A stretch of 64,000 bases of DNA from Rhizophagus irregularis. Taxonomy: Eukaryota. Positions within the stretch are counted from its first letter, which is position 1; each line of letters begins with the position of its first letter. The stretch covers positions 2,170,001 to 2,234,000 of the forward strand of contig NC_089436.1 of assembly GCF_026210795.1 (NCBI RefSeq), written 5' to 3'. Below are positions 11,876-60,948 of this stretch, in pieces. The translations under genes were made by a program, and so were the position numbers. The notes under the pieces were generated by a model that was not told the origin of the DNA, did not search any database, and worked only from the letters and a program-made list of their open reading frames with translations.

Positions 11876-12757
11876 ATGACTCGTCTTTTAATATTAGCAA
11901 CAATTATTCTTTCCGTCATTTCATATGCGTCAGCCCGTAAGTATAAATTTTCTTTAAAAAATGTGATTGTTTAAACATTTGTCGATAATACTTATCGGAT
12001 TATATGTACACCATAAACGTTTTTTTCTAATTCATTAAATATATTTTCTCTTAATTTTAGAGATTGTTGATACACTTAATACACCCATTGGACCTGTCAC
12101 TCAAGGTGCAAAAGTAGCAGTTACATGGGCCCTTCTCCCTGGTGCTGATGCAGGTACCGCTACTGGGGACTTATCTGCTACAGATTCGGCCACCAAAAAT
12201 GTTTTATCAATTGATCCAGCAGTACCACTTGCACCCAAAACTTATTTGTGGAATGTTCAAGTACCTCCTGGAACTTATACTCTTGGACTTAATGATGGTT
12301 CCGGTCTCAAACAAAGTGGTGAAGTTGTTGTTAAAGCACCCGCCGGTGGAGCAGCTCCCGCTCCCGCCCCTGGTGGCGATGGAAAAACAGCTCCCGCTCC
12401 AGCTCCAGCTCCCGCTCCTCCCGCTAAAGGAGCTCCAGCTCCAGCTCCCGCTCCCGGTGATGGTAAAACAGCCGCTCCTTCCGCTCCTCCTGCTAAAGGA
12501 GCTCCAGCTCCCGCTCCTTCAGCAACTGGTGGCTCACCTTCCACACCTTCCACACCTACAGGGTATTTACATATATATTAATTTTCATTTTAATTTAAAT
12601 AATGTATTTAATGATATATTTATCTATTTTTTTTTTTTACAGAAATTCATCATCAACACCAGCTGCAGTATCAACGGGCTCAGCATCTTCAATTTTCCCA
12701 GGATTTGATGTTGTATTGAGTCTTTTGAGTGTTGCTGTCGCAATGTCACAATTTTAA
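11876..12757 (+). CDS. Secreted GPI-anchored Ala/Pro-rich cell-surface protein (AGL-like; N-terminal beta-rich domain resembling the Ser/Thr-rich GPI-anchored Kre9/Knh1-N family), 225 aa
   Basis: Exons 11876-11936, 12061-12562 and 12643-12757 total 678 nt, in frame, with GT-AG introns. Signal peptide MTRLLILATIILSVISYASA; domain with VTW...YLWNV...PGTYTL; APAP/GDGK/PAKG repeats; GPI-type tail STGSASSIFPGFDVVLSLLSVAVAMSQF. Confidence 0.9.
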
Positions 12758-20875: not shown

Positions 20876-21395
20876 ATCAGGAAATTTGTTTAGGCGTAAT
20901 TTAGTGTAATATTTCGAAGGTAGTGTAAAATTTCGAAATATTACACTAAAAACGTAATATTACAAAAGTTTACGCTCTTAAATTTGAATAATTATAGTAA
21001 TTTAAGAATATCTCGCTATCTACTGATCCAATCAAGACGATCTATAGCTCATTGGAATCAGCTCATCAAGACGGATCGAATGGTAGTAAAATCGCATTTC
21101 TACAGTTGATAGAACGCTCTATAGTATGCAGTAAAGTTTTAAATTAATAGAAAGTCATCTATCAAACATAAAGATACGATTTTACTACCATTCGATTCGT
21201 CTTGATGAGCTGATTCCAATGAGCTATAGATCGTCTTGATTGGATCAGTAGATAGTGAGATATTCTTAAATTACTATAATTATTCAAATTTAAAAGCGTA
21301 AACTTTTGTAATATTACGTTTTTAGTGTAATATTTTGAAATTTTACACCACCTTCGAAATATTACACTAAATTACGCCTAAACAAATTTCCTGAT
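20876..21395. mobile_element. Fold-back MITE with ~220-bp TIRs, each containing the palindromic module
   Basis: ATCAGGAAATTTGTTTAGGCG...CGCCTAAACAAATTTCCTGAT; flanks CAAT/GAAT; removing it restores the MULE frame (INNTIVRKRTFEC). Confidence 0.9.
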
Positions 21396-21441: not shown

Positions 21442-22081
21442 TGTTATCCTGTCAACGATTAAAGCCGACTGAAAAACTTTAACGCTTTAACAGGTTAACT
21501 GGAGTTTAACTTAATAGGAGAGTCTTAAATTGATCACGAATAATCACGTGAAATAACGTTGGATGTTCAGTTAAAGAAAATAGGTTTTTATTAAAATAAT
21601 GTAAGATTTTAGATACGACGAAAAATATAGATAATCTCTTAGTTGCGAAATTAACTATCTTGAATTATACTACTGGGAATAATACTCTTTTCGTATAACT
21701 TGAAAACTACAATATAATTCTTAACTAACTAACTGACCTTCCCTTACTTGGTAAAATCCTATCACTATTTATAATAAAATAAAAATCAAGAATATTTGAT
21801 AAAATAAATAAATCAAATATAATAAATAAATAAAATAAATAAAATAAAATAAATAAATAAGATAAAATAAATATATCAAATAAATAAAATATAACAAATA
21901 AAATAAATAAAATTAATAAAATAAATAAATCAAATATATCAAATTTATCAGATTTATTAGATTTATCAAATAAATCAAGAAAATCAAGAAAATCAAGAAA
22001 ATCGAAAAAATCAAGGGATCTACGAAATGATCTACAAAATTGATCTACATAAAATTACTGCGCCACATTTCTATTTTAACA
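21442..22081 (-). mobile_element. Solo LTR of the Gypsy family at 27051-36487
   Basis: TGTTATCC...TTTTAACA; near-identical to both LTRs of the full element; 4-bp TSD ACAT. Confidence 0.95.
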
Positions 22082-22095
22082 ACATCTATATAAAC

Positions 22096-22339
22096 TAAGG
22101 TTGCTTGTCTAAACCTCTTCAAAATCCTACGATTAGTTTCGTCAAAATTTTACTATAGATTTATTATAGTTTTGGCAGAGTTTCAGCAGTTTTGGCATTT
22201 ATAATAAGTTTCGGCAGTTTCGCCTTTCTCCAAAGTTTCGCCAGTTTTTTAATATAACTTTAATATAGTTTTGGCAGAATTTCGCTTTTCGGCGAAACGC
22301 CATCTTGCCTAAACCCCTAAGTTTCGGCAAGCAACCTTA
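22096..22339. mobile_element. hAT MITE, family TAAGGTTGC (copy 1, 244 bp)
   Basis: TIR TAAGGTTGCTTG; 8-bp TSD ATATAAAC. Confidence 0.92.
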
Positions 22340-25300: not shown

Positions 25301-27050
25301 GTAAATTTTTAGAAAGGGTGATTTAACCTGGATGATTTAACCCAGAGGGAGGGAAGGGAGGACAAGTTAGCAAAACTCAATAAATAAATAAAAATTATCT
25401 TAATAATTTTAATGTAATTAAGTGTAATACTACATTATTTAGTATAATTGCAGTATTTTTTAGTGCAATACCATATAATCTAGTATAGTGCTACATTTTT
25501 TAGTGTAATTTAATGTAATGTACATTAGTCAAAATAGGACAATTCAGCCTAAATTTAATTAGGTCGAATATAGCTAGGTCAAATGATGATCTAACTTGTG
25601 TCAAATTGAAGTCAAATTTTTGGGCATATTTAAGGTGCCAATCATCTTATATTCAGAAAGGATATTTGACTAACATTAGACCTTAATTTTACTATCATTT
25701 AACTAGAATTAATAATTTATTAGTAATTTATTAGACTTGAATTTTAAGCCAAATTATAGACTATTGGTAGTAAATTTTTTACTGAAATGTTTCCGAATTT
25801 ATTCATTTTATTAAATATTTACATTATATTACAAATTATGCTATCTATTTTAATTCTAATCTATTTGCAAAATTCACCAGAAATTGTTCAACAAAAGAGC
25901 TGATTTTTTTTACAAAAAAGAAAATAATGTTAAAAAAAAGTATTAAATAGTGTTTTGAAGAAAATTTTAAAACTTACCTGTATTCATTAAATATTCCAGA
26001 TTCGGCTATCTAAGGAACTGATATCTATAAAAAAAAATAAAATTTTAAAAAAATAAATTAAAAAAAAAATGAAAGTTTCAAAATTTCAAATTAAAACTTA
26101 CTATATCGGTATATTCGAAGTCCTAAAGCTGAAAGAATCAATACATATAAAAAAAAGAAAAAAATTAAAAAAAAATAAAAAATAAAAAAACGTAAGTTTT
26201 GCTTCGAAACTTATCAAATTCAAATTTCAAAGTTAGTGTCAGCGCTCTACAAAAAAATATGAAAAGAAATGTTAATTCGTTTTTCATATTTAAAATAAAA
26301 AAATTCTCTTCCTCCATCCTCTTTCCCCATTTCTTATCTTAAAGTCCAGTTTTGTGTTCAAGTTGGCATCCTCTTACGCATCCTACAAAAAAAGTAATGA
26401 AAAAAACATAAGTTCATTTTATAAATTAAAGAAACCTCTTCTTTCCCTGTTTCTTACCTAAAGTCCAGTTTTGTGACCAATCTGGTGCTTTACAAAAGAA
26501 AAACAATGAAAAAGAAATGTTAATATGTTTCTTAAATTAAAAAAAAAATAAAATAAATTTTAAAAAGTTTTGAAGCAAAGTTTTGCTTTGAAACTTACCA
26601 ATTCATTCTAAAGTTCAATGTTGAAGGAACTGGATACCTATAAAAAAAAATAAAATTAAAAAAAATAAACTAAAAAAAATTATTATATTAGTTTCAAATA
26701 AAAACTTACCATATTGGCATAATAATAAAAAAACCAAGATTCATACTTATGAATCTTAGTTCTTTTTCAAAAGCTCCAAAAGCTAAAAAAAGAAAGAATA
26801 GTTATTAGTAACCATTTATAATATTAAAAAAAAATAAAAAAATAAAACCAAGATTCCTTATTTACGAACCTTCAGTTTTTTCCCATTTTTCTAAACATGG
26901 AAACCCGCTCAAACTCAAAAAAAAGAAAAGAACAGTTATTAGTAACTGTTCGTAATATTCAAAAAAATAAGAAAAAAAAATTAAGATTTGTATATACAAA
27001 TCTTTGGTTTTTTCCTGTTCTTCTGAACACAAAAGCACATCCAAACCTAT

Positions 27051-27679
27051 TGTTATCCTGTCAACAATTAAAGCCGACTGAAAAACTTTAATGCTTTAAC
27101 AGGTTAACTGGAGTTTAACTTAATAGGAGAATCTTAAGTTGATCACAAATAATCACGTGAAATAACGTTGGATGTTCAGTTAAAGAAAATAGGTTTTTAT
27201 TAAAATAATGTAAGATTTTGGATACGATGAAAATATAGATAATCTCTTGGTTACGAAATTAACTATCTTGAATTATATTACTGGGAATAATACTCTTTTC
27301 ATATAACTCGAAAACTACAATATGATTCTTAACTATCTGACTGACCTTTCCTTCTTGGTAAAATCTTATTACTATTTATAATAAAATAAAAATCAAGAAT
27401 ATTTGATAAAATAAATAAAACAAATATAATAAATAAATAAAATAAATAAAATAAAATAAATAAATAAGATAAAATAAATATATCAAATAAATAAAATATA
27501 ACAAATAAAATAAATAAAATTAATAAAATAAATAAATCAAATATATCAAATTTATCAGATTTATCAGATTTATCAAATAAATCAAGAAAATCAAGAAAAT
27601 CGAAAAAATCAAGGGATCTATGAAATGATCTACAAAATTGATCTACATAAAACTACTGCGCCACATTTCTATTTTAACA
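27051..27679 (-). repeat. 3' LTR
   Basis: Direct repeat of 35860-36487; adjacent to the PPT. Confidence 0.97.
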
Positions 27680-27691
27680 CTTCCCCCCCTT
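27680..27691 (-). other. Polypurine tract
   Basis: AAGGGGGGGAAG immediately upstream of the 3' LTR on the - strand. Confidence 0.9.
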
Positions 27692-27714: not shown

Positions 27715-28101
27715 TTAAATTTCCAATACCAATTGCTTAATTTCGTTTTATTTTAAAGATCTTATCAAATTAACAGTAGTATTAACGGTACAATAAATCT
27801 GAGTAGGACTTGTTTCAAAAATATAATAAACATGAACAGAAATCCAATAATAATGTTCTGAAACTATTTGTCTAACTTGCTTCTTTGTTAATTCTTTTTG
27901 TTCAATAAGCTGTCCTAAGAAATATGCGAAAACTAGAGCTGGAATTCTTTGTTTTAATCGTTATGCTCGTAACAAACATCGGTAAGTCATATGAATTTTT
28001 GTTTTATCATCTATTTCTTCTGAATAAGGTTCGTCTTGTAATTTGTGAGAACTATTTCCTTCAATTAATAGGTCTTGTAACACAATTTCGTAAGGCATCA
28101 T
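27715..28101 (-). pseudogene. Gypsy accessory ORF (sense, 128 codons) just upstream of the PPT
   Basis: MMPYEIVLQDL...ALVFAYFLGQLIE...ISVHVYYIFETSPTQIY...LIRSLK*NEIKQLVLEI; two in-frame TAA codons consistent with CAA>TAA. Confidence 0.7.
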
Positions 28102-28542: not shown

Positions 28543-29345
28543 ATGGGCTGCCATTGATCAAAAACATTTCAAAAAAAATCACAAGCTCGCTTTAAGGTCC
28601 TAAAGGCTGCTCGTAAATCACAACTTCGTCAACTTGAGGGTGAGTATTGCACACAAGGTTCTTAAAATGTTTCTTAAACGGGGATAGTCTGCAGACAGGG
28701 TACTTGTACCTCTAGGATATTTAGTCTTGAATGGACTCCCCTATAGAACTTTTCTGGGCTATCGATTTATTCACTTAGTCTTTGACTAACTTGATGTTTC
28801 TACTTTCCCATTTAATAACACAAGATCAAGTTCAAACGTTACAATCTAAAAATGATTCCTTACAAGCTGAAAATAATTCATTACAAGAAGAAATTATGAC
28901 CCTAACAGAGTTTGGTATTTTGCAGTCCAGGCAAATCCATCATTGAGAAGAAAATGCGCAATCTAATAACGAACTGTGGGCTGTCGTCCAAAAGGAATGT
29001 TGGGAGGCCCAGAAAAAGGTTATTCAACAAGATGAAGAAATTGTCGGTTTAAAGAACGAAGTAAAACAACTGAAGAGGGAAAATAAAAGCACTACGTATA
29101 GTACAAAATATTTTGAAACTAAATATTATCATGCAATGAGTGTTATACACAAATATGGTATAATTGTTATTGACGATAATATGCCCAAGTTTCCTTCATT
29201 TGTACCTTCATCTTCATCTTCATCTTTTTCCTCTTCTTCTTACGATCAAATATTTGTTGCTAATGGTCCTGATTATATTAATGATAATAATGATAATAAT
29301 AATGATGATAATAACGTTGATAATAATATCAATAATGAACAATAA
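28543..29345 (+). pseudogene. Gypsy accessory ORF (antisense to gag-pol), coiled-coil with Ser/Asn/Asp-rich tail
   Basis: Basic N-terminus from ATG 28543; possible GTGAGT intron from ~28640; long frame QVQTLQSKNDSLQAENNSLQEEI...EEIVGLKNEVKQLKREN running into ORF 29136-29345; TGA stops consistent with CGA>TGA. Confidence 0.6.
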
Positions 29346-32267
29346 TAATTTTCTTATTCTTAATAAAATTTTTGTACTATTTTCAAACTATGACTATTGG
29401 TTCCAATTTTCGCTCGTAATATTTCTTAAGCCTATTCCCATGAATTACGTGTTTAACTAATTTTTCATCTAAATTTCTAAGTTTATAAACATTATCATTA
29501 AGTACTTCATAAATGAAATAAGGACCTATCCACTTATTTTCTAATTTTGCCGAGAAATTATTTTTAAGCCACGTTCGTTCTACTAAAACTTGATCTCCTA
29601 TTTTCAATTTTTCTGAAATTCCTCATTGATCATATACTTGTTTTTGCTTTGCCTGTTCATTTTCAATTCTTAACGAAATATCATTTTGTTCTTCTTTTAA
29701 TTTGACTATCAATTGATAAATTCGTCTTTGCATTGGATCCTTTTCATTTTGAGGTATTTGTGATGGAATTTTTAAATCAATTGGTAAAGTTGCTTTTCGT
29801 TCATAAGTTAAATAGAATGGTGTTTTTTCCGTAGTGTTATATTTTTTCGTTCGATATGCCAAAAGTACTGCATCGATTAATTGATCCCATTTTTTATTAT
29901 TATCTTGAACTAATTTTGCTATACATTCACCAATTGTCCGATTAAATCTTTCAACCATTCCATTTGTTTGAGGTCTATAAGCTGAGGTAAGGTGATGCTT
30001 AGTTTGATAATTTTCGCATAATTCATCAATTAATTTATTCATAAATGATGTTCCTCTATCTGATAGAATTTCTTGTGAAACTCCATGTCTACAAATAATT
30101 TCTTCATAAATAAATTTAGCTACTGTTTCTGCTTTAATATTGGATATCGCTCTTGCTTCTGGCCATTTTGTAAAATAATCCATGGCGACAATAATATATC
30201 TATTTCCACTACTGGTGATTGGTAATGGTCCTTTAATGTCAATTCCTATTCTGTGAAATGGTCCTTTAACTGGTATTGGTATCAATTCTTCTCGCCAATT
30301 GGTAGGTCCTCTTCTTTGACAAATATCACAAGTTTTTATATATTCTTTTACATCTCCTAATTGTGACCAATAATATCGATCTTTGATTTTTCCAATTATA
30401 ACGTCTATTCGCACCGCTTATATCTGTATGAAAGTGATATAAAATAGGTTCTACTTGTTCGTGTAGAATTACTTTTCTTATACCATTCTTTGTTTTTCTA
30501 AATAAAATATTGTTTTGATAAATATATTGGGTTGAGTTTTTCCGAATTTGGGTTTTCCGTTTATCACTCAGTTATACCATCCATAAAAGTGAAAGTTATT
30601 AAAAATAAAATTAATTCGTTATATAGTCATTCATCCATAATCGTTATATGAGGTTAAAGGGTTGGTGTGATTATTAGTTGAGGTTGAGTCAAGACGAGAG
30701 AATGCATCAGCATTCGCATGTTTAGTTCCTTTTCAATATACAATGTCATATTTATATTCTGATAAGGCAATCTTCCATCTTTCCAATCTTTTATTATTAT
30801 TTTCCGTTGTTGAATTTAGTAACCACTTGAGTGCTGCATGGTCAGTGATGATGGTGAATTTACTTCCATAAAGATAATGTCAAAAATATTTAACTGCCCA
30901 TACAATCGCAAGGCATTCCAATTCTGTGATGGCATAATTCTTTTCCGCCAGTATTAAAGTTTGACTAGCATAGGCAATCACATACTCTTGATCATCAGTT
31001 TTCTGTGCAAGTACTGCACCTAACCCTATAATTGAAGCATCGGTATATAAAAAGAAAGGCTTTAAAAAATCTGGGTATTGTACAATCGGTGCTGTTGTTA
31101 ATTTATCTCTTAAATCCTCAAATGCTTTCTGTTGTAAATTCGTCCATTCATAAGGTGCATCCTTTTTTAATAATTTGTACATTGGATCAGCAACTTTAGT
31201 AAAATCTTTGATGAAGTGTCAATAATAAGAGAATAATCCTAGGACTCCGCGTAATTCTCTAATATTTTGAGACTCTGGGTAATTAACCATTTTATTGACT
31301 TTTTCTGGATCAGGTTTAACACCTTCTTTTCCTACAACATGTCCTAAAAATTGAAGTTCAAGTACTGCAAAATGACATTTCTCTGCTTTTAATCTTAGAT
31401 TCGCCTTACGAATTCTATTTAAAACTTCTTCCAAATGTTGAATATGATCTTTAAAAGTTTTTGAATATATAATGACATCGTCAAGATAAACTAAAATGAA
31501 CTTCTCCTTTATTCCATGTAAAACTTTATCCATAGTTTGCTGAAATGTCGCAGGTGCATTGCAAAGTCCAAAAGGCATAACTTTGAATTTATATGTTCCA
31601 AATTTGGTGATAAAGGCTGTTTTTTCCTGGTCTTCTGCCCTTACTTTTATTTGCCAATACCCTGATGCTAAATCTAAAGTGGTGAACCACTGTGCATCTT
31701 GTAGAGAATCTAATAATTCATCAATTCTTGGAAGCGGGTAATTATCCTTTTTGTAATATCGTTAAGAGCTTTATAATTAACGCAAAACCTAAGTTTTCCA
31801 TTCTTCTTTTTCACTACTACTACTGGAAATGACCATGGACTAGTTAATGGTTCTATTAGCCCTTGTTCTAACATGTCATTAATTTCACTCTCAATAAATT
31901 CATTTTCCTTTGGTGCTGTCCTATAGGCTCATTTTTTGATAGGTGGCACTTCTTCAGTGATAAATGATAATAATATGTTCCCCTTCTGGAGTTTGTTTTA
32001 ACTCTTGCAATGATTTAGCGAATAAGTCTTTATTTTTATCTAGTAATTGATGGAGTGATTGATATTGACTTTCCTCTAATTCTTCAATCGGAATAACTTT
32101 TTCTGGTTCTAATTGAATATTAGATACATTCGGACTTTCTGATTCTTGCATCACGTGATAAATGTTCCAATTTTCTTGAATGATTTGACAATTATTACAA
32201 ACTTCTCGATCTCCTAGGGTTTTACATAGGCATTTTCCTGGCCCTTTACTATTAATTACGCCAGTAC

Positions 32268-32399
32268 TAAAGATGTTAGCCGTAATTCAAAAAAGTGTCG
32301 TAATACAAAATTTTTATATGCCGTAATTAATTAAGGCTATAAAAATCTTATAGCCGTAATTCAAAATTTTTTAAAAAATAATTAAGGCTAACATCTTTA
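32268..32399. mobile_element. hAT MITE (132 bp) in pol
   Basis: TIR TAAAGATGTTAGCC; TSD GCCAGTAC/ACCAGTAC. Confidence 0.85.
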
Positions 32400-33493
32400 A
32401 CCAGTACTATTGTGACTTTGTTGCTTAATATATTTCAAATACCCTGGGTGATATTCTCGATCATTGATTTGAAAAGTACTTTTGGTTATTTCTGTCTTAT
32501 AAAATAGAACTGCTATGGTGTCTTCTAACTCATCTTCTAATTCTAGTTCATCTACTGGGTCAATGACTGTATATTTTGTTGGGTCCAATTTTTGAGAACA
32601 TGTGACAGAAATTTGTTGTTAGATTCCTTCATATTTAATGGTGATGGTATTCTGTCCATAATCAATGTTTGCATTAACCGTCTTCAACCATTCGTTACCA
32701 AGCAGAACATTATATTCAGCTTAATTCGTAACTATCATATTAATATATATAGACTTTAATATCTCTCATTTGCACTGGAACTTGCTGAACCATTCCTAAT
32801 GGTGATGATTTTTGTCCTGTTACATCGATGATTTTAATATTTGTAGGTAATTCAATTCCTTTATTGACTTTATCTAGGAATCTTTTAGAAATAATACAAC
32901 CTACAGCTCCTGAATCTATTAAGACATTAACAGGCTGTCCATATACAATCGCTTCTCCATACAAAGCTTCTTCAGCTCTTTCTTTTTGATTAAGATATGC
33001 TGGTTCTTCTCTAATCAATTGGTTAAGAATATTAGTATAATAATTAACTAGTGTTGGGGTTAATTCATTATGTTTCGCCATAAATTGGAATTGTTCAAAA
33101 GAAGTAATTGTCCAAGCTCCTTGTTTTTCAGGTTCAGTTCGCTGTAACTCTTGATAATCAGGTACTTTCGTTAAGTAAATATCACAATTAAAAGCTGGAT
33201 CGTTAAATAAAAATACACATTCATCTTTTTTAATATCTAGCGCTGTTTCTTCTTTTGTTTCTCTAAGCACAGCTTGAAAAGAAGATTCACAATTTTCTAC
33301 TTTTCCTCCTGCTACTTGCCATAAATTATACATTGTTTTATTTTTCTGTAGTCGTTTCGATAAATAAATTCCAAAGTTATTATATAAAATATTGAGAACA
33401 TATGTAGGTCTTTTTAATAGTTGAATAGGCTTTTCAATAGGTCTGATTTCTTCTAATAAGTCCTTCCAATTCACTCTTTTAGTACTAATTTCG

Positions 33494-33552
33494 TTAGAGG
33501 GTTTTCTAAAATTCGCACTCTTCCTCTCCAGAGGTGCGCTTAGTAGTTTAAA
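33494..33552 (-). promoter_or_regulatory. -1 programmed ribosomal frameshift signal (U UUA AAC plus predicted pseudoknot)
   Basis: gag ends CGT TTA AAC TAC TAA. The -1 frame is open into the NUDIX/PR ORF. Stem CGCAC/GUGCG starts 7 nt downstream and its loop (AGAGG) is complementary to a downstream CCUCU. Confidence 0.85.
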
Positions 33553-35813
33553 CGACCATTATTTTGGAAACCATTATTAGTTCCATTATTACTATTATTA
33601 TTATTTGATGGTGGTGACCTGCAATTCCTGGATACATGTCCTTTTCTTCCACAATTGTAACAATCAACATTCCTTAAATCTCTCCCATTATTGTTGCGAT
33701 TATTATTATTTTGTTGATTATTTCTTTGAAGACAGTTTTTTACGATGTGTCCAGTTCTTCCACAGACATAGCATTCTGAATTATTCCTGTTTTAATTATT
33801 ATTATTATTGTTATTTGGAATAGGACTGGTTGGTTTAGTTTCTGTACGTATTTGACTTAATGCTGCAGTAATTTCTTCGCTGATTTTTCGTTCAATCATC
33901 TTTTCTACACTTTCTGATTGGAAATAACTCATTGAATAGGCGGGTTGGTACATTGCTAGGTTAGTTCGAGCAGGAATCATTCTTCCATTCATATTTTGTA
34001 AATATCCTGGCATCATTAAATAGACTGATAAATCCATTCCCATTGAAAAAGCAGTTTCTAATGCTTGTGCTTTTTCCATTGCTTCTTCCACTGTTTAAGG
34101 CATAGCGGATTGTACAGGTACAACAAATTCAGGTCTTAAACCTTCAATAAATTCATGAATTTTATCCAATTCCATTCGTCTATCTGTAGGATCTACTCTT
34201 TTCCATAATTTTGTAATTGCTGTGATATATTCTTCAATTGTTTCACCTTGTTTTTGTTTCCTATTTCGCAGTTGATGTTTCCACTGACTAATCCTAAAAG
34301 GATTACAGAAATGATCCTTAAATAAATGTGTAAATGATCATTGAGGGTTATTATCATTCTCCCAAAAAGTAATATTTTGGCGATTGTACCAAGTTAATGC
34401 TATCCCTTTTAGATATGATGCTACTAAAACAATCGCTCGTTCTTGGCTGTCTCTATTAGTTACACAAGCTCTACTAAAAGCTTCAATCCATTCGATAGGT
34501 TCCTGATTTCCTCCTTTGAAAACTGGAAAGTTGACCAGTCTAGATTCTTTAGGCTCAACTCCTTTTGCATAAAATTTTTGTGCCTGTTGAAAAAACTGTA
34601 ACATGATCTTATTTTGTTTAGCTTCATTAATAGGAGTTTGTTCTTCTGATTCCTCATCATTTTGTAAATTATTACTAGAAAAATCAAGAAGGTCATTCTG
34701 TCAAGAAATTTTCAAGGTTGATGTTCTAATATTAGAAGAACCAAATGAACCTTGGAACGGTTTTATAGTTACAAATGATTTAGGATTTGACGATAATCCA
34801 GTACCAGAATATGGTTTATAAGTTGGAAATGGTTTTGTACCCCATTTATTTGAATTACCGCTAGTTGTAGCTAAGGTTGCTTGTCTAAACCTCTTCAAAA
34901 TCCTACGATTAGTTTCATCAAAATTTTACTATAGATTTATTATAGTTTCAGCAGAGTTTCAGCAGTTTTGGCATTTATAATAAGTTTCAGCAGTTTCGCC
35001 TTTTTCCAAAGTTTTGCCAGTTTTTTAATATAACTTTAATATAGTTTCGGCAGAATTTTGCTTTTCAGCGAAACGCCATCTTGCCTAAACCCTTAGGTTT
35101 TGGCAAGCAACCTTAGTTGTAGCCTTTTACTTATTTTTCTCATCCTTTCTAGGATCGTAAATATGGTTGTTTGATGTATCGGCTATACCTAATTGATTAA
35201 AACTACTATCTCCATCATTTTTGAGTACTGTATCATGTGATATTATACTTTCTGCTTTTTCTTCTTCATTTTGTTGGTTTTACCACGCTTTGTCTTGTAC
35301 ACTTGTTGTAGATTCAGTTCCTCCAAATTGTTGTTCACTACCTGAACTTTCATCATTTTTATCTGTCTTATTTTGGTTTCCTGACATCTTGCTTGTATTA
35401 CTAGCTGTATCTGATAATTGTTCTGAATAATATGCTTCCCAATTATTGAATCGGTCTGTGACTTCCCAATAGAATTGTATCATTTCTACTAATGTATCAA
35501 ATGCTGGTATTACTATATATCTAATAGTTTGTACTAACTCCTGAATTAATTTGTAAACTTCTTGGCTATCTCGTTGTCGCTGTAATTTCCTAAAGATTCG
35601 TATAGTATTTTGAGTAAAAACACTATCTGGATACCTGGGTGAAATAACGAATTGCCAAAATTCTCTAAATCTGGGATTCTCTAATAGTCCTAAATTCTGA
35701 TCTTCTGGATAGCAATCTGCACACGATAAATCTTCAATTAAATCCTGTTTTCCTTGATTATGATTTTTTATATGCTAAAAAATCTGTTGTAAATACTGGA
35801 ATTCCTTATTCAT
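33540..35813 (-). pseudogene. gag: gag with long N-terminal extension and two CCHC zinc knuckles
   Basis: ATG at 35813; capsid-like FPVFKGGNQEPIEWIEAFSRAC...YLKGIALTWY; knuckles CYVCGRTGHIVKNC and CYNCGRKGHVSRNC; interrupted by stops and a MITE. Confidence 0.88.
34872..35115. mobile_element. hAT MITE, family TAAGGTTGC (copy 2, 244 bp) in gag
   Basis: Same sequence family as 22096-22339; 8-bp TSD GTTGTAGC. Confidence 0.92.
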
Positions 35814-35838: not shown

Positions 35839-35856
35839 TCCACCCAACTCGCACCA
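35839..35856 (-). other. Primer-binding site
   Basis: TGGTGCGAGTTGGGTGGA, 3 nt downstream of the 5' LTR; complementary to a tRNA 3' end ...CCCAACTCGCACCA. tRNA isotype not determined. Confidence 0.8.
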
Positions 35857-35859
35857 AAT

Positions 35860-36487
35860 TGTTATCCTGTCAACAATTAAAGCTGACTGAAAAACTTTAA
35901 TGCTTTAACAAGTTAACTGGAGTTTAACTTAATGGGAGAGTCTTAAGTTGATCACAAATAATCACGTGAAATAACGTTAGATGTTCAGTTAAAGAAAATA
36001 GGTTTTTATTAAAATAATGTAAGATTTTGGATACGACGAAAATATAGATAATCTCTTGGTTACAAAATTAACTATCTTGAATTATATTACTGGGAATAAT
36101 ACTCTTTTCATATAACTCAAAAATTACAATACGATTCTTAACTATCTGACTGACCTTTCCTTCTTGGTAAATCCTATCACTATTTATAATAAAATAAAAA
36201 TCAAGAATATTTGATAAAATAAATAAAACAAATATAATAAATAAATAAAATAAATAAAATAAAATAAATAAATAAGATAAAATAAATATATCAAATAAAT
36301 AAAATATAACAAATAAAATAAATAAAATTAATAAAATAAATAAATCAAATATATCAAATTTATCAGATTTATCAGATTTATTAAATAAATCAAGAAAATC
36401 AAGAAAATCGAAAAAATTAAGGGATCTACAAAATGATCTACAAAATTGATCTACATAAAACTACTGCGCCACATTTCTATTTTAACA
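35860..36487 (-). repeat. 5' LTR
   Basis: Direct repeat of 27051-27679; adjacent to the PBS. Confidence 0.97.
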
Positions 36488-36644
36488 CTATAAAAAAAGA
36501 AAGAACAGTTAGTAAACCATTCATATATTAAAAAAAACAAAAAAAAAACAAGATTTGTATTTACGAATCTTGATTTCTTGGTTTTCCTTTCTTCGTAGTT
36601 CCTTACTGCATTCTAAAAAAGAAGTTAACGGTTCGTTTATAATA

Positions 36645-58244: not shown

Positions 58245-58698
58245 TTAATAAGGTTCAACTATACCATCAAAATCAATATCAACACCCATTTCTTCAGCTT
58301 CTTCAATAAATGCATCTAATATATCATAAGCTTCTCTTCCTAATTTTAAGAAACTCACATTAGCATAAAATTTAGGGAAATTCTCCAAAGTGATTAAATC
58401 TAACCAAGCATCATCATCATGATGATATAACCAATGTAAAATAGGTTCAAAAGCTTCAGGATAAGGTATTGGAATAGTTAAAATATTGGAATATTTAGAA
58501 CGATTCCCTAAAATATTTATAGGACCTAAAAGTTGATTAAAAAATCCTGACTGAGTTGCTAATACTAATGTATGAGCCCAGAAATAATACGTTGATGTTG
58601 ATGGTGATGATTGTAATTGTTTATTAAAAGTAGGAGATGTTGGAGGGGATGCTGGAGGCGTAACCTGTTGCAAATATTGTTGATTATAATGATGATTT

Positions 58699-58736
<38 letters not shown>

Positions 58737-58775
58737 TTGTTGTTGCTGCTGTTGCTGTTGCTGTTCTTGTAATAG

Positions 58776-58806
<31 letters not shown>

Positions 58807-59216
58807 GATTGAGATTGATGAATTATATTATAAAGCTGCTGTTGATAATTATATAACATGACATTAAAATGACAAGTTATTTCAGCGGCTTCAGAAGCTG
58901 AAATATTTGAATTACTACAATTTATTATTGGTACATTATTTTCATTACCCTTTTCATTATTATTTATGTTAGAATAAGATAAGAAATAATTACAATAATA
59001 ATCAATTTCAGTCGTCCTGACGACTCTTAATAAAAAATCGGAAGTGTAGTTATTCCTCCAGTGCTGAGGTCCAATCTCGTCTAAATTTTTTAAAAAATAA
59101 GCTGTTGGAATCAATTTATTCGTAAAAGGATCTTTATAAAATGCTGGTGTATGATCCGTTTGTTTATATATCGGTAAAATTACTCGTTTACGTTTTGGTG
59201 ATATTGGTAAACCCAT
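58245..59216 (-). CDS. BTB/POZ-domain protein with polyQ insertion, 323 aa, single exon
   Basis: Intact ORF. BTB hallmarks SDFLLRV ... FWAHTLVLATQSGFFNQLL ... IPYPEAFEPILHWLY; long Q tracts and PPASPP. Confidence 0.88.
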
Positions 59217-60948
59217 TATTATTTTTTTTTATATTATTATTAATAACTGTCGAGAAAAATGTCTTTTTTTTTTTTTTCCTTTAAATAAAAAAAAGTTTTT
59301 TTTTTTGATTGAAAAATTGAAAAATTGAAAAAGAATATATTATTATATAGTGATTCTTCGTTTGTATTTTTTGTCGTTAGAAAAGGATCCGAAAAAAATA
59401 AAAAAAATAAAATAAAAATTATTATTATTATTTTATTCCTTTTTTTTTTAAAAAAAAAAAATGATTTTTTTAGAACCTTTCGAGATTATTATAAACGTAT
59501 ATTAATTATTATAAATAAAAAAAAAACTCTACTTTTTTTCGAAAATATTTTATTCTATTAAAAAAAATTGAAAAAGAAAGAGCTTCTTTTCAAAAAAAAA
59601 AAAAAAAGAAAAAAAAAGAGGCCTAAAAATTGCGATGAGGAAAAAAAATAATCCATAGCCAGTTTGATGGACTATTTATTGAAAAAATCAAATCCCAGCC
59701 ACACTTGGATAAAAAATGAAAAATTATTTTAGAAAGATTTTTTATTATGAAGTTTCCGGTGACACGGGTTGTTTTACTTAAAAGGTAACAATGGGTTAAT
59801 AAACGAAAGGAGTAAACAAAACGGGGTAATTTAAAATAAGAGAAAAAAAAAATTTTTTTTTTTTTAAAAAAAACATTCATATTCGGACTTGAGAAAAAAA
59901 TATATAAATCGATCAATTAATTGAACGGTTTGAAATTAATTGAATATATGTGGAAGACAATATAAATTATTAGATTGAGAAAGTAAGGGGGGGGGGGGTT
60001 TTTTTTACCCAGGCTTATACTAACGAAAAAGAGGTCAAAATTGGATAATGTATTTATTATCACACATAAAAGTAAAACTAGTTCGGAGGTAATTTACACT
60101 AACTAGGTGTAATGTGCAACCCCAGTAAACTAATCATCATAATTGTTTATCAAATGTCTATTAAGAGTGTCAAATATTATTAATTGGTCATTTCCGAAAT
60201 GCATTTATTAATTGACCATATGGATGACAAATGATAGGTTAAATATTGAAATGAATGCTAATTATAGAAAAAAAATCAGAAAAAAGTTTGATATAAATAT
60301 AGAATACGATAAAATAAAGATAGAAATCACGCGTGATTACGATCATAACAAAAAAAAGAATTTGTTAGTGGCGCACGATAAAATATAAGAGTGGTACAGA
60401 TCAACAAAGATAATAATAGTTGTCAATTTTAGGACATCAAAAGAAATTCCGCGTTTGGACTATTTCGCTATCTACCGATTATCATCTCATGTATATAAAG
60501 TACTAGTAGGAATTCGATAAAAATGTTTATTATACTAAAAAGTCTATTAATGGTTCAAGACGGATAAGAAGATATATTAGATATTATATCAACGGATATA
60601 TTTATTTTTTTTTTACGCCGACAAAAAACTTGATAACTTTTTAGTTATTTAAACAACTACTAAACCAATTTTGGTTCTATTGTTTTCTTTTGATAATCAA
60701 ATTCTCCTTTTTTTTTTTTTTACGCGTTTTAAATTAAAAATTTAAGGTTATTCACTATTAATACTATTAGATTAACAATGATTATATTCAATATACAATG
60801 GTTTGATCACGCGTTCAAAAGATCTTTTCCTTTTATAAAAACTTTCTTCTCAATTAACATCCAAGATTTTTTTTTTCTCTTATGAACTAAAAATGGTACT
60901 TTGTAATTACAAACTTTTTTCTTTTTTTTTTTTTTATTATTATGAATA

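Follow-up and report, generated by a model that had tools for sequence, protein, structure and literature searches.

Several LTR retroelements carry a nucleotide hydrolase in Pol. In the Gypsy elements PosPlaTy3-3/4/5 of Postia placenta, a dUTPase is located at the Pol N-terminus, at its C-terminus or in the gap between protease (PR) and reverse transcriptase (RT) (PMC2864245). Together with Tmt1 of Tuber and the retroviral dUTPases, these elements place the hydrolase N-terminally, between PR and RT or further 3' (PMC2864245, PMC6431247, PMC4531489), and the retroviral enzyme matters in non-dividing cells (PMC4531489). On the enzyme side, Pasterny et al. 2025 described NUDIX subfamily K, 14 proteins treated as a fungal enzyme subfamily for which a role in thiopurine metabolism was guessed; it has Glomerales members, RVP_2, RVT_1, zinc knuckles and a NUDT15-like character, and the authors suggested a retrotransposon fusion (PMC12210691).

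We analysed a stretch of 64,000 nucleotides of Rhizophagus irregularis DNA (the window), in which an earlier note had claimed a NUDIX hydrolase within a Gypsy retrotransposon as new. The novelty was overstated, because the fusion had been noted in passing as subfamily K (PMC12210691); compared with that description we add the element, its LTRs, the frameshift, the Pol position, the selection and the relocation. The Nudix box listed for subfamily K is letter for letter that of protein P0007 (R. clarus, 61% identity to the window domain), and subfamily K likewise comes from Glomerales, with RVP_2/RVT_1 present in its proteins from R. clarus and R. diaphanus. By this match of motif and architecture, not of accession, the element-borne Nudix is NUDIX subfamily K. 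A Nudix-bearing retrotransposon is not described in the open-access transposon literature that we searched, with Repbase, Dfam, GyDB, subscription journals and bioRxiv supplements outside the search; the word 'nudix' does not occur in the main text of PMC3248453, PMC6416283, PMC8647823, PMC6431247, PMC2864245 and PMC4531489, nor in one supplement each of PMC11952901 and PMC11075540.

Results

The host element is a dead copy of a Ty3/Gypsy retrotransposon

The domain lies in an LTR retrotransposon of 9,437 bases, running from 36487 to 27051 on the minus strand, complete in structure and dead in coding capacity. Its LTRs of 628 and 629 bp are 97.5% identical, with 612 matches, 16 mismatches (transitions only) and 1 gap. 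The features of this copy are listed in their order along the element:

36488-36491 and 27047-27050: target duplication CTAT, 4 bp, flanking both LTRs
35860..36487, minus strand: 5' LTR, TG...CA ends
35839..35856, minus strand: primer-binding site, beginning with TGG 3 bases past the LTR; nearly the same sequence in the related element L005
33540..35813, minus strand: gag (Pfam Retrotrans_gag, Ty3_capsid, zf-CCHC; tblastn with P0010 and the L004 Gag)
34872..35115, no strand: MITE in gag, with terminal inverted repeats and the 8-bp duplication GTTGTAGC
33514..33552, minus strand: predicted -1 frameshift signal, slippery TTTAAAC at 33552-33546 and stem CGCAC/GTGCG 7 bases downstream
33558-32740, minus strand: open frame with Nudix then protease (Pfam)
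33445..33477, minus strand: motif K/R-(x)-V-x-W-K-D/E-P-L-E-E, 18-20 residues upstream of the Nudix domain
33010..33420, minus strand: Nudix hydrolase domain, 137 aa (Pfam, fold model, alignments)
32600..32970, minus strand: aspartic protease (DSGA), RVP_2 at residues 190-268 of the open frame; frameshifted near 32745 in this copy
32268..32399, no strand: MITE in the PR-RT spacer, with 14-bp inverted repeats and an 8-bp duplication with one mismatch
31300..31835, minus strand: reverse transcriptase (YLDD), broken (Pfam RVT_1, E 1e-35)
30631..31056, minus strand: RNase H and the Pol stop codon at 30633-30631 (Pfam RT_RNaseH_2, E 1e-32)
29380..30638, minus strand: integrase in its own frame (Pfam rve, Integrase_H2C2)
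27751..28095, minus strand: remains of a conserved ORF 3' of integrase, of no known family (tblastn)
27680..27688, minus strand: polypurine tract GGGGGGAAG, before the 3' LTR
27051..27679, minus strand: 3' LTR, aligned against the 5' LTR

The order of the Pfam domains (capsid, two zinc knuckles, PR, RT, RNase H, integrase) is that of Gypsy, and Ty3_capsid passes its cut-off in L005; the element is a Ty3/Gypsy LTR retrotransposon. When intact relatives were aligned by tblastn, the copy proved to have 6 stops within the regions matching Pol and 3 within integrase, besides several frameshifts and the two MITEs. The gag gene, which comprises a long N-terminal extension, the capsid and two CCHC knuckles, is interrupted by stops and by one of these MITEs, which we take from its 8-bp duplication to be hAT-like. 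In Ty3/Gypsy elements integrase usually shares its frame with RT, a rule that is not universal. Here it forms a separate ORF in all four elements that span the junction (window, L002, L005 and L006), with the same arrangement in each: the integrase ATG, at 30638 in the window, lies 5 bases ahead of the Pol stop. This ATGGA-stop overlap suggests stop-restart coupling of Pol and integrase translation.

Other features were observed in the element and around it. The N-terminal extension of Gag (35813-35280, minus strand) contains a conserved His and C-x2-C stretch common to L003, L004 and L005, with no Pfam match. The ORF remnant 3' of integrase (28095-27751, minus strand), just before the polypurine tract, is 35% identical to an intact 145-aa ORF of L005 (7893-8327, plus strand; E 1e-15) and likewise has no Pfam match. 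Antisense coiled-coil-like ORFs occur in the 3' region of both elements (window 28947-29345, plus strand; L005 9214-8765, minus strand), and tblastn found no similarity between the two. A solo LTR of the same family at 21442-22081 (96% identical, duplication ACAT) is directly followed by a copy of the gag-type MITE (near 22096-22339), and a near-perfect inverted repeat of 520 bp at 20876-21395 (251-bp arms, 93%) is probably a foldback MITE. Elsewhere in the window, the ORF at 12039-12581 (plus strand) is rich in Ser, Thr, Pro and Ala and looks like a secreted or cell-wall protein, while that at 58245-59228 (minus strand, 327 aa) has a long poly-Gln tract and, by eye, a BTB-like C-terminal part.

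A Nudix domain lies between the frameshift site and the protease

The frameshift site that had been claimed upstream of the domain was found: TTTAAAC and its stem are invariant in the four families aligned (window, L002, L004 and L005), and the Gag frame terminates just past TTTAAAC. Judging from this pattern, a -1 frameshift would yield the product Gag-linker-Nudix-PR-RT-RNase H. The motif that follows is conserved in families with the Nudix before PR: it is present in 39 of the 62 proteins with at least 25 upstream residues, and most of those lacking it have the Nudix elsewhere in Pol. This motif resembles RVxF, by which proteins dock to protein phosphatase 1; alternatively, it may mark a protease site. 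A Cys/His-rich insert, probably zinc-binding, was seen between frameshift and Nudix in L002, L003, L005 and L006 and between Nudix and PR in P0213, and is absent from the window copy.

Pfam NUDIX (PF00293) matched residues 51-157 of the frame 33558-32740 with E 3.7e-9 and 37.1 bits, above the cut-off of 21.1. The box G-x5-E-x7-RE-x2-EE lies at 33306-33238, where the earlier note had placed it, and the surrounding IYLSKR, LWQVAGG and EPEK..W (33135-33112, minus strand) are all present. Compared with the consensus GX5EX7REUXEEXGU, all the catalytic positions are there, with Thr standing at U and Ala in place of the last Gly. Neither a target duplication nor an inverted repeat was detected around the domain (repeats of at least 30 bases), in agreement with the earlier note, whereas both MITEs of the same element have both. 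The claim of an uninterrupted domain of about 130 residues stood as to its length, since 137 aa are open, but not as to its weight: the chance that 137 codons stay open in a dead copy is about 0.4 by a rough count (12-15 breaks over about 2150 codons), so the open frame adds no evidence. For the same reason we dismissed it as a sign of domestication of the window copy.

The domain is kept in frame under purifying selection

A search for longer proteins returned 38 matches among 5,258 candidates, most of which include a protease and several of which include RT and RNase H; they come from R. irregularis, R. clarus, R. diaphanus or metagenomes and show 48-95% identity. Among named proteins, those of Rhizophagus irregularis come closest (92-96% identity), and Funneliformis records occur among the shorter matches. 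Seven metagenome loci were retrieved. L005 is an apparently intact element, with a Gag of 762 aa, a Nudix-PR-RT-RNase H frame of 1,048 aa and a separate integrase, and the corresponding ORF of L002, of 1003 aa, is intact as well. Even relatives of about 50% identity retain the Nudix in frame while their RT and PR have diverged. Four DNA runs showed coverage of the Nudix like that of neighbouring regions, and none of the nine listed joints excised the domain cleanly, contigs showing presence and not absence.

Nei-Gojobori dN/dS of the Nudix domain was 0.08-0.29 in 19 of 21 pairs from seven sequences, the two others being a saturated pair and a near-identical one (0.59); the pairs are non-independent and dS is often close to saturation. 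In the same set the ratio was 0-0.41 for PR, 0.03-0.15 for RT, 0.04-0.28 for RNase H and 0.09-0.56 for the PR-RT spacer. Since the spacer also stays below 1, selection alone is no proof of catalysis, and the pattern of residues is more telling for selection as an enzyme. We reduced 127 domains to 43 representatives at 80% identity, excluding 16 non-element proteins, matches below 60 bits and short matches. The metal-binding glutamates belong to the most conserved positions. Of the box residues, E57 occurs in 43 representatives, E58 in 42 and R53 and E54 in 41 each; K40 and K99 (43 each), the loop residue E96 (41) and W103 (40/40) are similarly constant, the median column being kept at 59%. These figures understate the constraint, because many rows are decayed copies. 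The last Gly of the box is kept in 35 of the 43 and is Ala in the window copy and its close kin. Judged by these alignments, the Nudix domain is under purifying selection with its catalytic residues intact, and it is integral to the Gypsy lineage, as had been claimed, rather than an accident of the window copy.

Poly(A) RNA was taken from three runs of two samples that are labelled as the species of the best DNA run, about a quarter of each run being read. No reads covered the Nudix domain in any of the three; most fell within the 3' region or one of the two MITEs. The MITE at 34872-35115 draws many reads with differing flanks, so copies of it elsewhere lie in transcripts. The element family looks silent in the sampled RNA, which agrees with the methylation of most transposons in Rhizophagus irregularis (PMC8647823).

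The Nudix occupies three positions in Pol

Flanking sequence was seen in 61 of the 281 fetched proteins above 60 bits, the 220 others being fragments or flankless, and all 61 have a Pol context. The Nudix lies before PR in 44, after PR in 5, directly before RT in 2 and past the end of RNase H in 10, nine of the latter being placed by motif only. 'N-terminus of Pol', as the domain was first described, is thus its commonest position but one of three. P0179 unites zinc knuckle, PR, Nudix, RT and RNase H in one frame; the Nudix also follows PR in P0226 and P0210, and RNase H in P0217.

In a tree of 63 rows the 29 element-type rows formed a single clade (95/86), whose sister is a pair of unplaced proteins. 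The next group, of long Nudix proteins including one fused to a deoxynucleoside kinase, is not firm (92/78); the outgroups sit on long branches, and genes called from metagenomes may be chimeric. Within the element-borne clade the three positions are interleaved. Tests of a single origin for each position (22 rows) gave p 0.049 for PR-RT, a marginal rejection, 0.10 for after RNase H and 0.32 for before PR. These trees support one capture followed by at least two relocations within Pol. The proteins P0179 and P0023 are 62% identical in Nudix, 31% in PR and 59% in RT, and AU tests on seven sequences did not reject congruence of the Nudix and RT trees (p 0.058 and 0.127); swapping of the Nudix between element families is a lead. 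The apparent single capture with relocation differs from the fungal and retroviral dUTPases, for which independent acquisitions were proposed (PMC2864245, PMC6431247, PMC4531489).

In the sister proteins P0298/P0262, the presence of a degenerate protease N-terminal to the Nudix was unsupported (0/20 significant). Among viral contigs none of 54 pattern matches was confirmed. Fungal endobacteria, suspected as the source of P0154-P0158, were dropped as donor after a scan of prokaryote genomes yielded five short box-only matches in unrelated bacteria. P0264, in the group adjoining the element clade, is a deoxynucleoside kinase-Nudix fusion, a type of fusion that marks NUDIX subfamilies C and F (PMC12210691). 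A nucleotide-metabolism gene of this type could have been the donor.

Fold and nearest enzymes

A fold model built from 80 sequences reached pLDDT 95.3; an earlier one from 4 sequences had pLDDT 73 and gave no Foldseek match at E 0.001. In Foldseek, human NUDT15 takes all of the first ten ranks (E 4e-9 to 2e-8). The alpha-beta-alpha Nudix fold is recovered against many Nudix structures, with Z 16-17 and rmsd 2-3 Å over 120-130 residues. VIA-align ties Dcp2 (Z 17.1, rmsd 2.2, 127 aligned), NUDX1 (17.0), MutT (16.4) and NUDT15 (16.4), so the fold leaves the substrate unfixed. The profile aligns with AtNUDX1 and NUDT15 as far as the EPEK..W loop and beyond the box, and gives a similar score to a MutT; NUDT15, AtNUDX1 and MutT are the nearest characterised enzymes by profile, which bears out the proposed resemblance to MutT/NUDT15-type enzymes. 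The EPEK..W loop after the box and the full-length profile match assign the domain to the NUDT15/NUDX1-like group. Identity to every solved or characterised Nudix enzyme is about 25% or less, the cut-off of the bacterial MutT equivalog TIGR00586 was missed (35.1 against 97.9 bits), and the ESM Atlas returned generic NUDIX clusters only.

The element Nudix has the fold, the box and the Arg before the box in common with NUDT15 (MTH2), Arabidopsis NUDX1 and E. coli MutT, and the EPEK..W loop with NUDT15 and NUDX1. It differs from them in being only about 20-25% identical, in its own FNDPxFNCDxY and TPT motifs and in its fusion in a polyprotein. The Gln just before its box presumably takes the place of NUDT15 Gln44. 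NUDT15 is a homodimer whose base pocket includes Phe135, Trp136 and Gly137; its highest activities are those on dGTP, thio-(d)GTP and dUTP, whereas it hydrolyses 8-oxo-dGTP only weakly (PMC4532830).

Discussion

The Nudix domain is genuine and conserved, a probably active accessory enzyme that a large group of Gypsy elements carries in arbuscular mycorrhizal fungi. The Nudix elements likely work like dUTPase-bearing LTR retrotransposons without being members of them: the Nudix fold is unrelated to that of dUTPase, and no dUTPase domain was found in the window ORFs, P0179, P0025 or P0023. The analogy, already drawn in the earlier note, is stronger now because the Nudix also moves among Pol positions.

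The reading that we favour, with about an even chance of being right, is that the Nudix acts in the particle as a cleaner of the nucleotide pool, hydrolysing dUTP or damaged dNTPs beside RT. Domains within Pol are produced and packaged in roughly the same quantity as RT. The element protease would free the Nudix from the polyprotein, and the freed enzyme would work inside the particle, presumably preferring non-canonical triphosphates, the role that dUTPase has in other fungal Gypsy elements and some retroviruses. We favour this cleaner because of the profile relatives MutT, NUDX1 and NUDT15, the placement of dUTPase in Postia Gypsy and the role of retroviral dUTPase. Its specificity must differ from that of NUDT15, because hydrolysis of dGTP, the best natural substrate of NUDT15, would harm reverse transcription. 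Docking fitted 8-oxo-dGTP into a pocket of subfamily K that resembles the one in NUDT15 (PMC12210691, supplement 2), and across the new fungal subfamilies it ranked NADPH, NAD+, Ap3A and Ap4A highest (PMC12210691).

The latter ranking, which favoured Ap3A, Ap4A and NAD(P), and the broad substrate range of Nudix enzymes (PMC12210691) would fit another role, namely that the domain, once released from Pol, acts as a counter-defence by breaking down a nucleotide that the host uses in signalling or defence (ApnA, ADP-ribose, NAD(H), inositol pyrophosphate). We consider this unlikely: the docking result is generic across subfamilies, and in all 61 flanked cases the Nudix is part of Pol and never a separate abundant ORF, though the elements carry other extra ORFs.

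A role on RNA 5' ends seems rather doubtful too. The Nudix would then be a decapping enzyme or RNA pyrophosphohydrolase acting on packaged genomic RNA (in strand transfer, or in the switch from translation to packaging) or on host or defence RNAs. Yeast Ty elements are linked to host decapping factors, which counts for such a role, as do the top, though tied, VIA-align score of Dcp2, its Foldseek rank of 11 and a weak match to RppH models. Sequence profiles, however, rank MutT, NUDX1 and NUDT15 above RppH, Dcp2 is not named in the best 60 of 64 PDB profile matches, the EPEK..W loop is common to NUDX1 and NUDT15, and the domain is a bare 137-aa Nudix fold.

We think it improbable that the Nudix is kept non-catalytically, as a scaffold, as a nucleotide- or RNA-binding module or as a spacer for protease activation, or that it is a neutral passenger. 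All in-frame parts of Pol are somewhat constrained, even the PR-RT spacer, and the window copy and its close kin have Ala where the box ends in Gly; yet the metal-binding glutamates vary less than almost any other column, and persistence at three unrelated positions runs contrary to what a spacer predicts. Hardly credible, finally, is the insertion of a host Nudix gene, or of a second transposon bearing one, into the window copy alone: two MITEs did land there and Nudix genes are numerous in Glomeromycota (PMC12210691), but the idea is refuted because homologues share the in-frame junctions, identical in dozens of independent elements at 48-96% identity, and moreover introns, inverted repeats and a target duplication are all unseen around the domain and no contig joint in the four DNA runs cuts it out cleanly.

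With the particle-bound cleaner as the preferred function, we tentatively put forward a wider scenario, which is more likely wrong than right: Gypsy elements of arbuscular mycorrhizal fungi would have captured a Nudix once, then moved it within Pol and exchanged it between families like a mobile cassette. The enzyme would hydrolyse dUTP or damaged dNTPs, a convergent solution for reverse transcription in non-dividing, long-lived spores and hyphae. If true, its fold would be one not described before as a working part of retroelements. Few accessory enzymes are kept in the Pol of LTR elements, and the finding brings in a second enzyme fold, unrelated to the first. It also explains part of the reported abundance of Nudix genes in Glomeromycota, the subfamily K genes being transposon parts and not host housekeeping genes. 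Lastly, it suggests that the quality of the nucleotide pool limits retrotransposition in these fungi, an idea that the intact element L005 makes testable.
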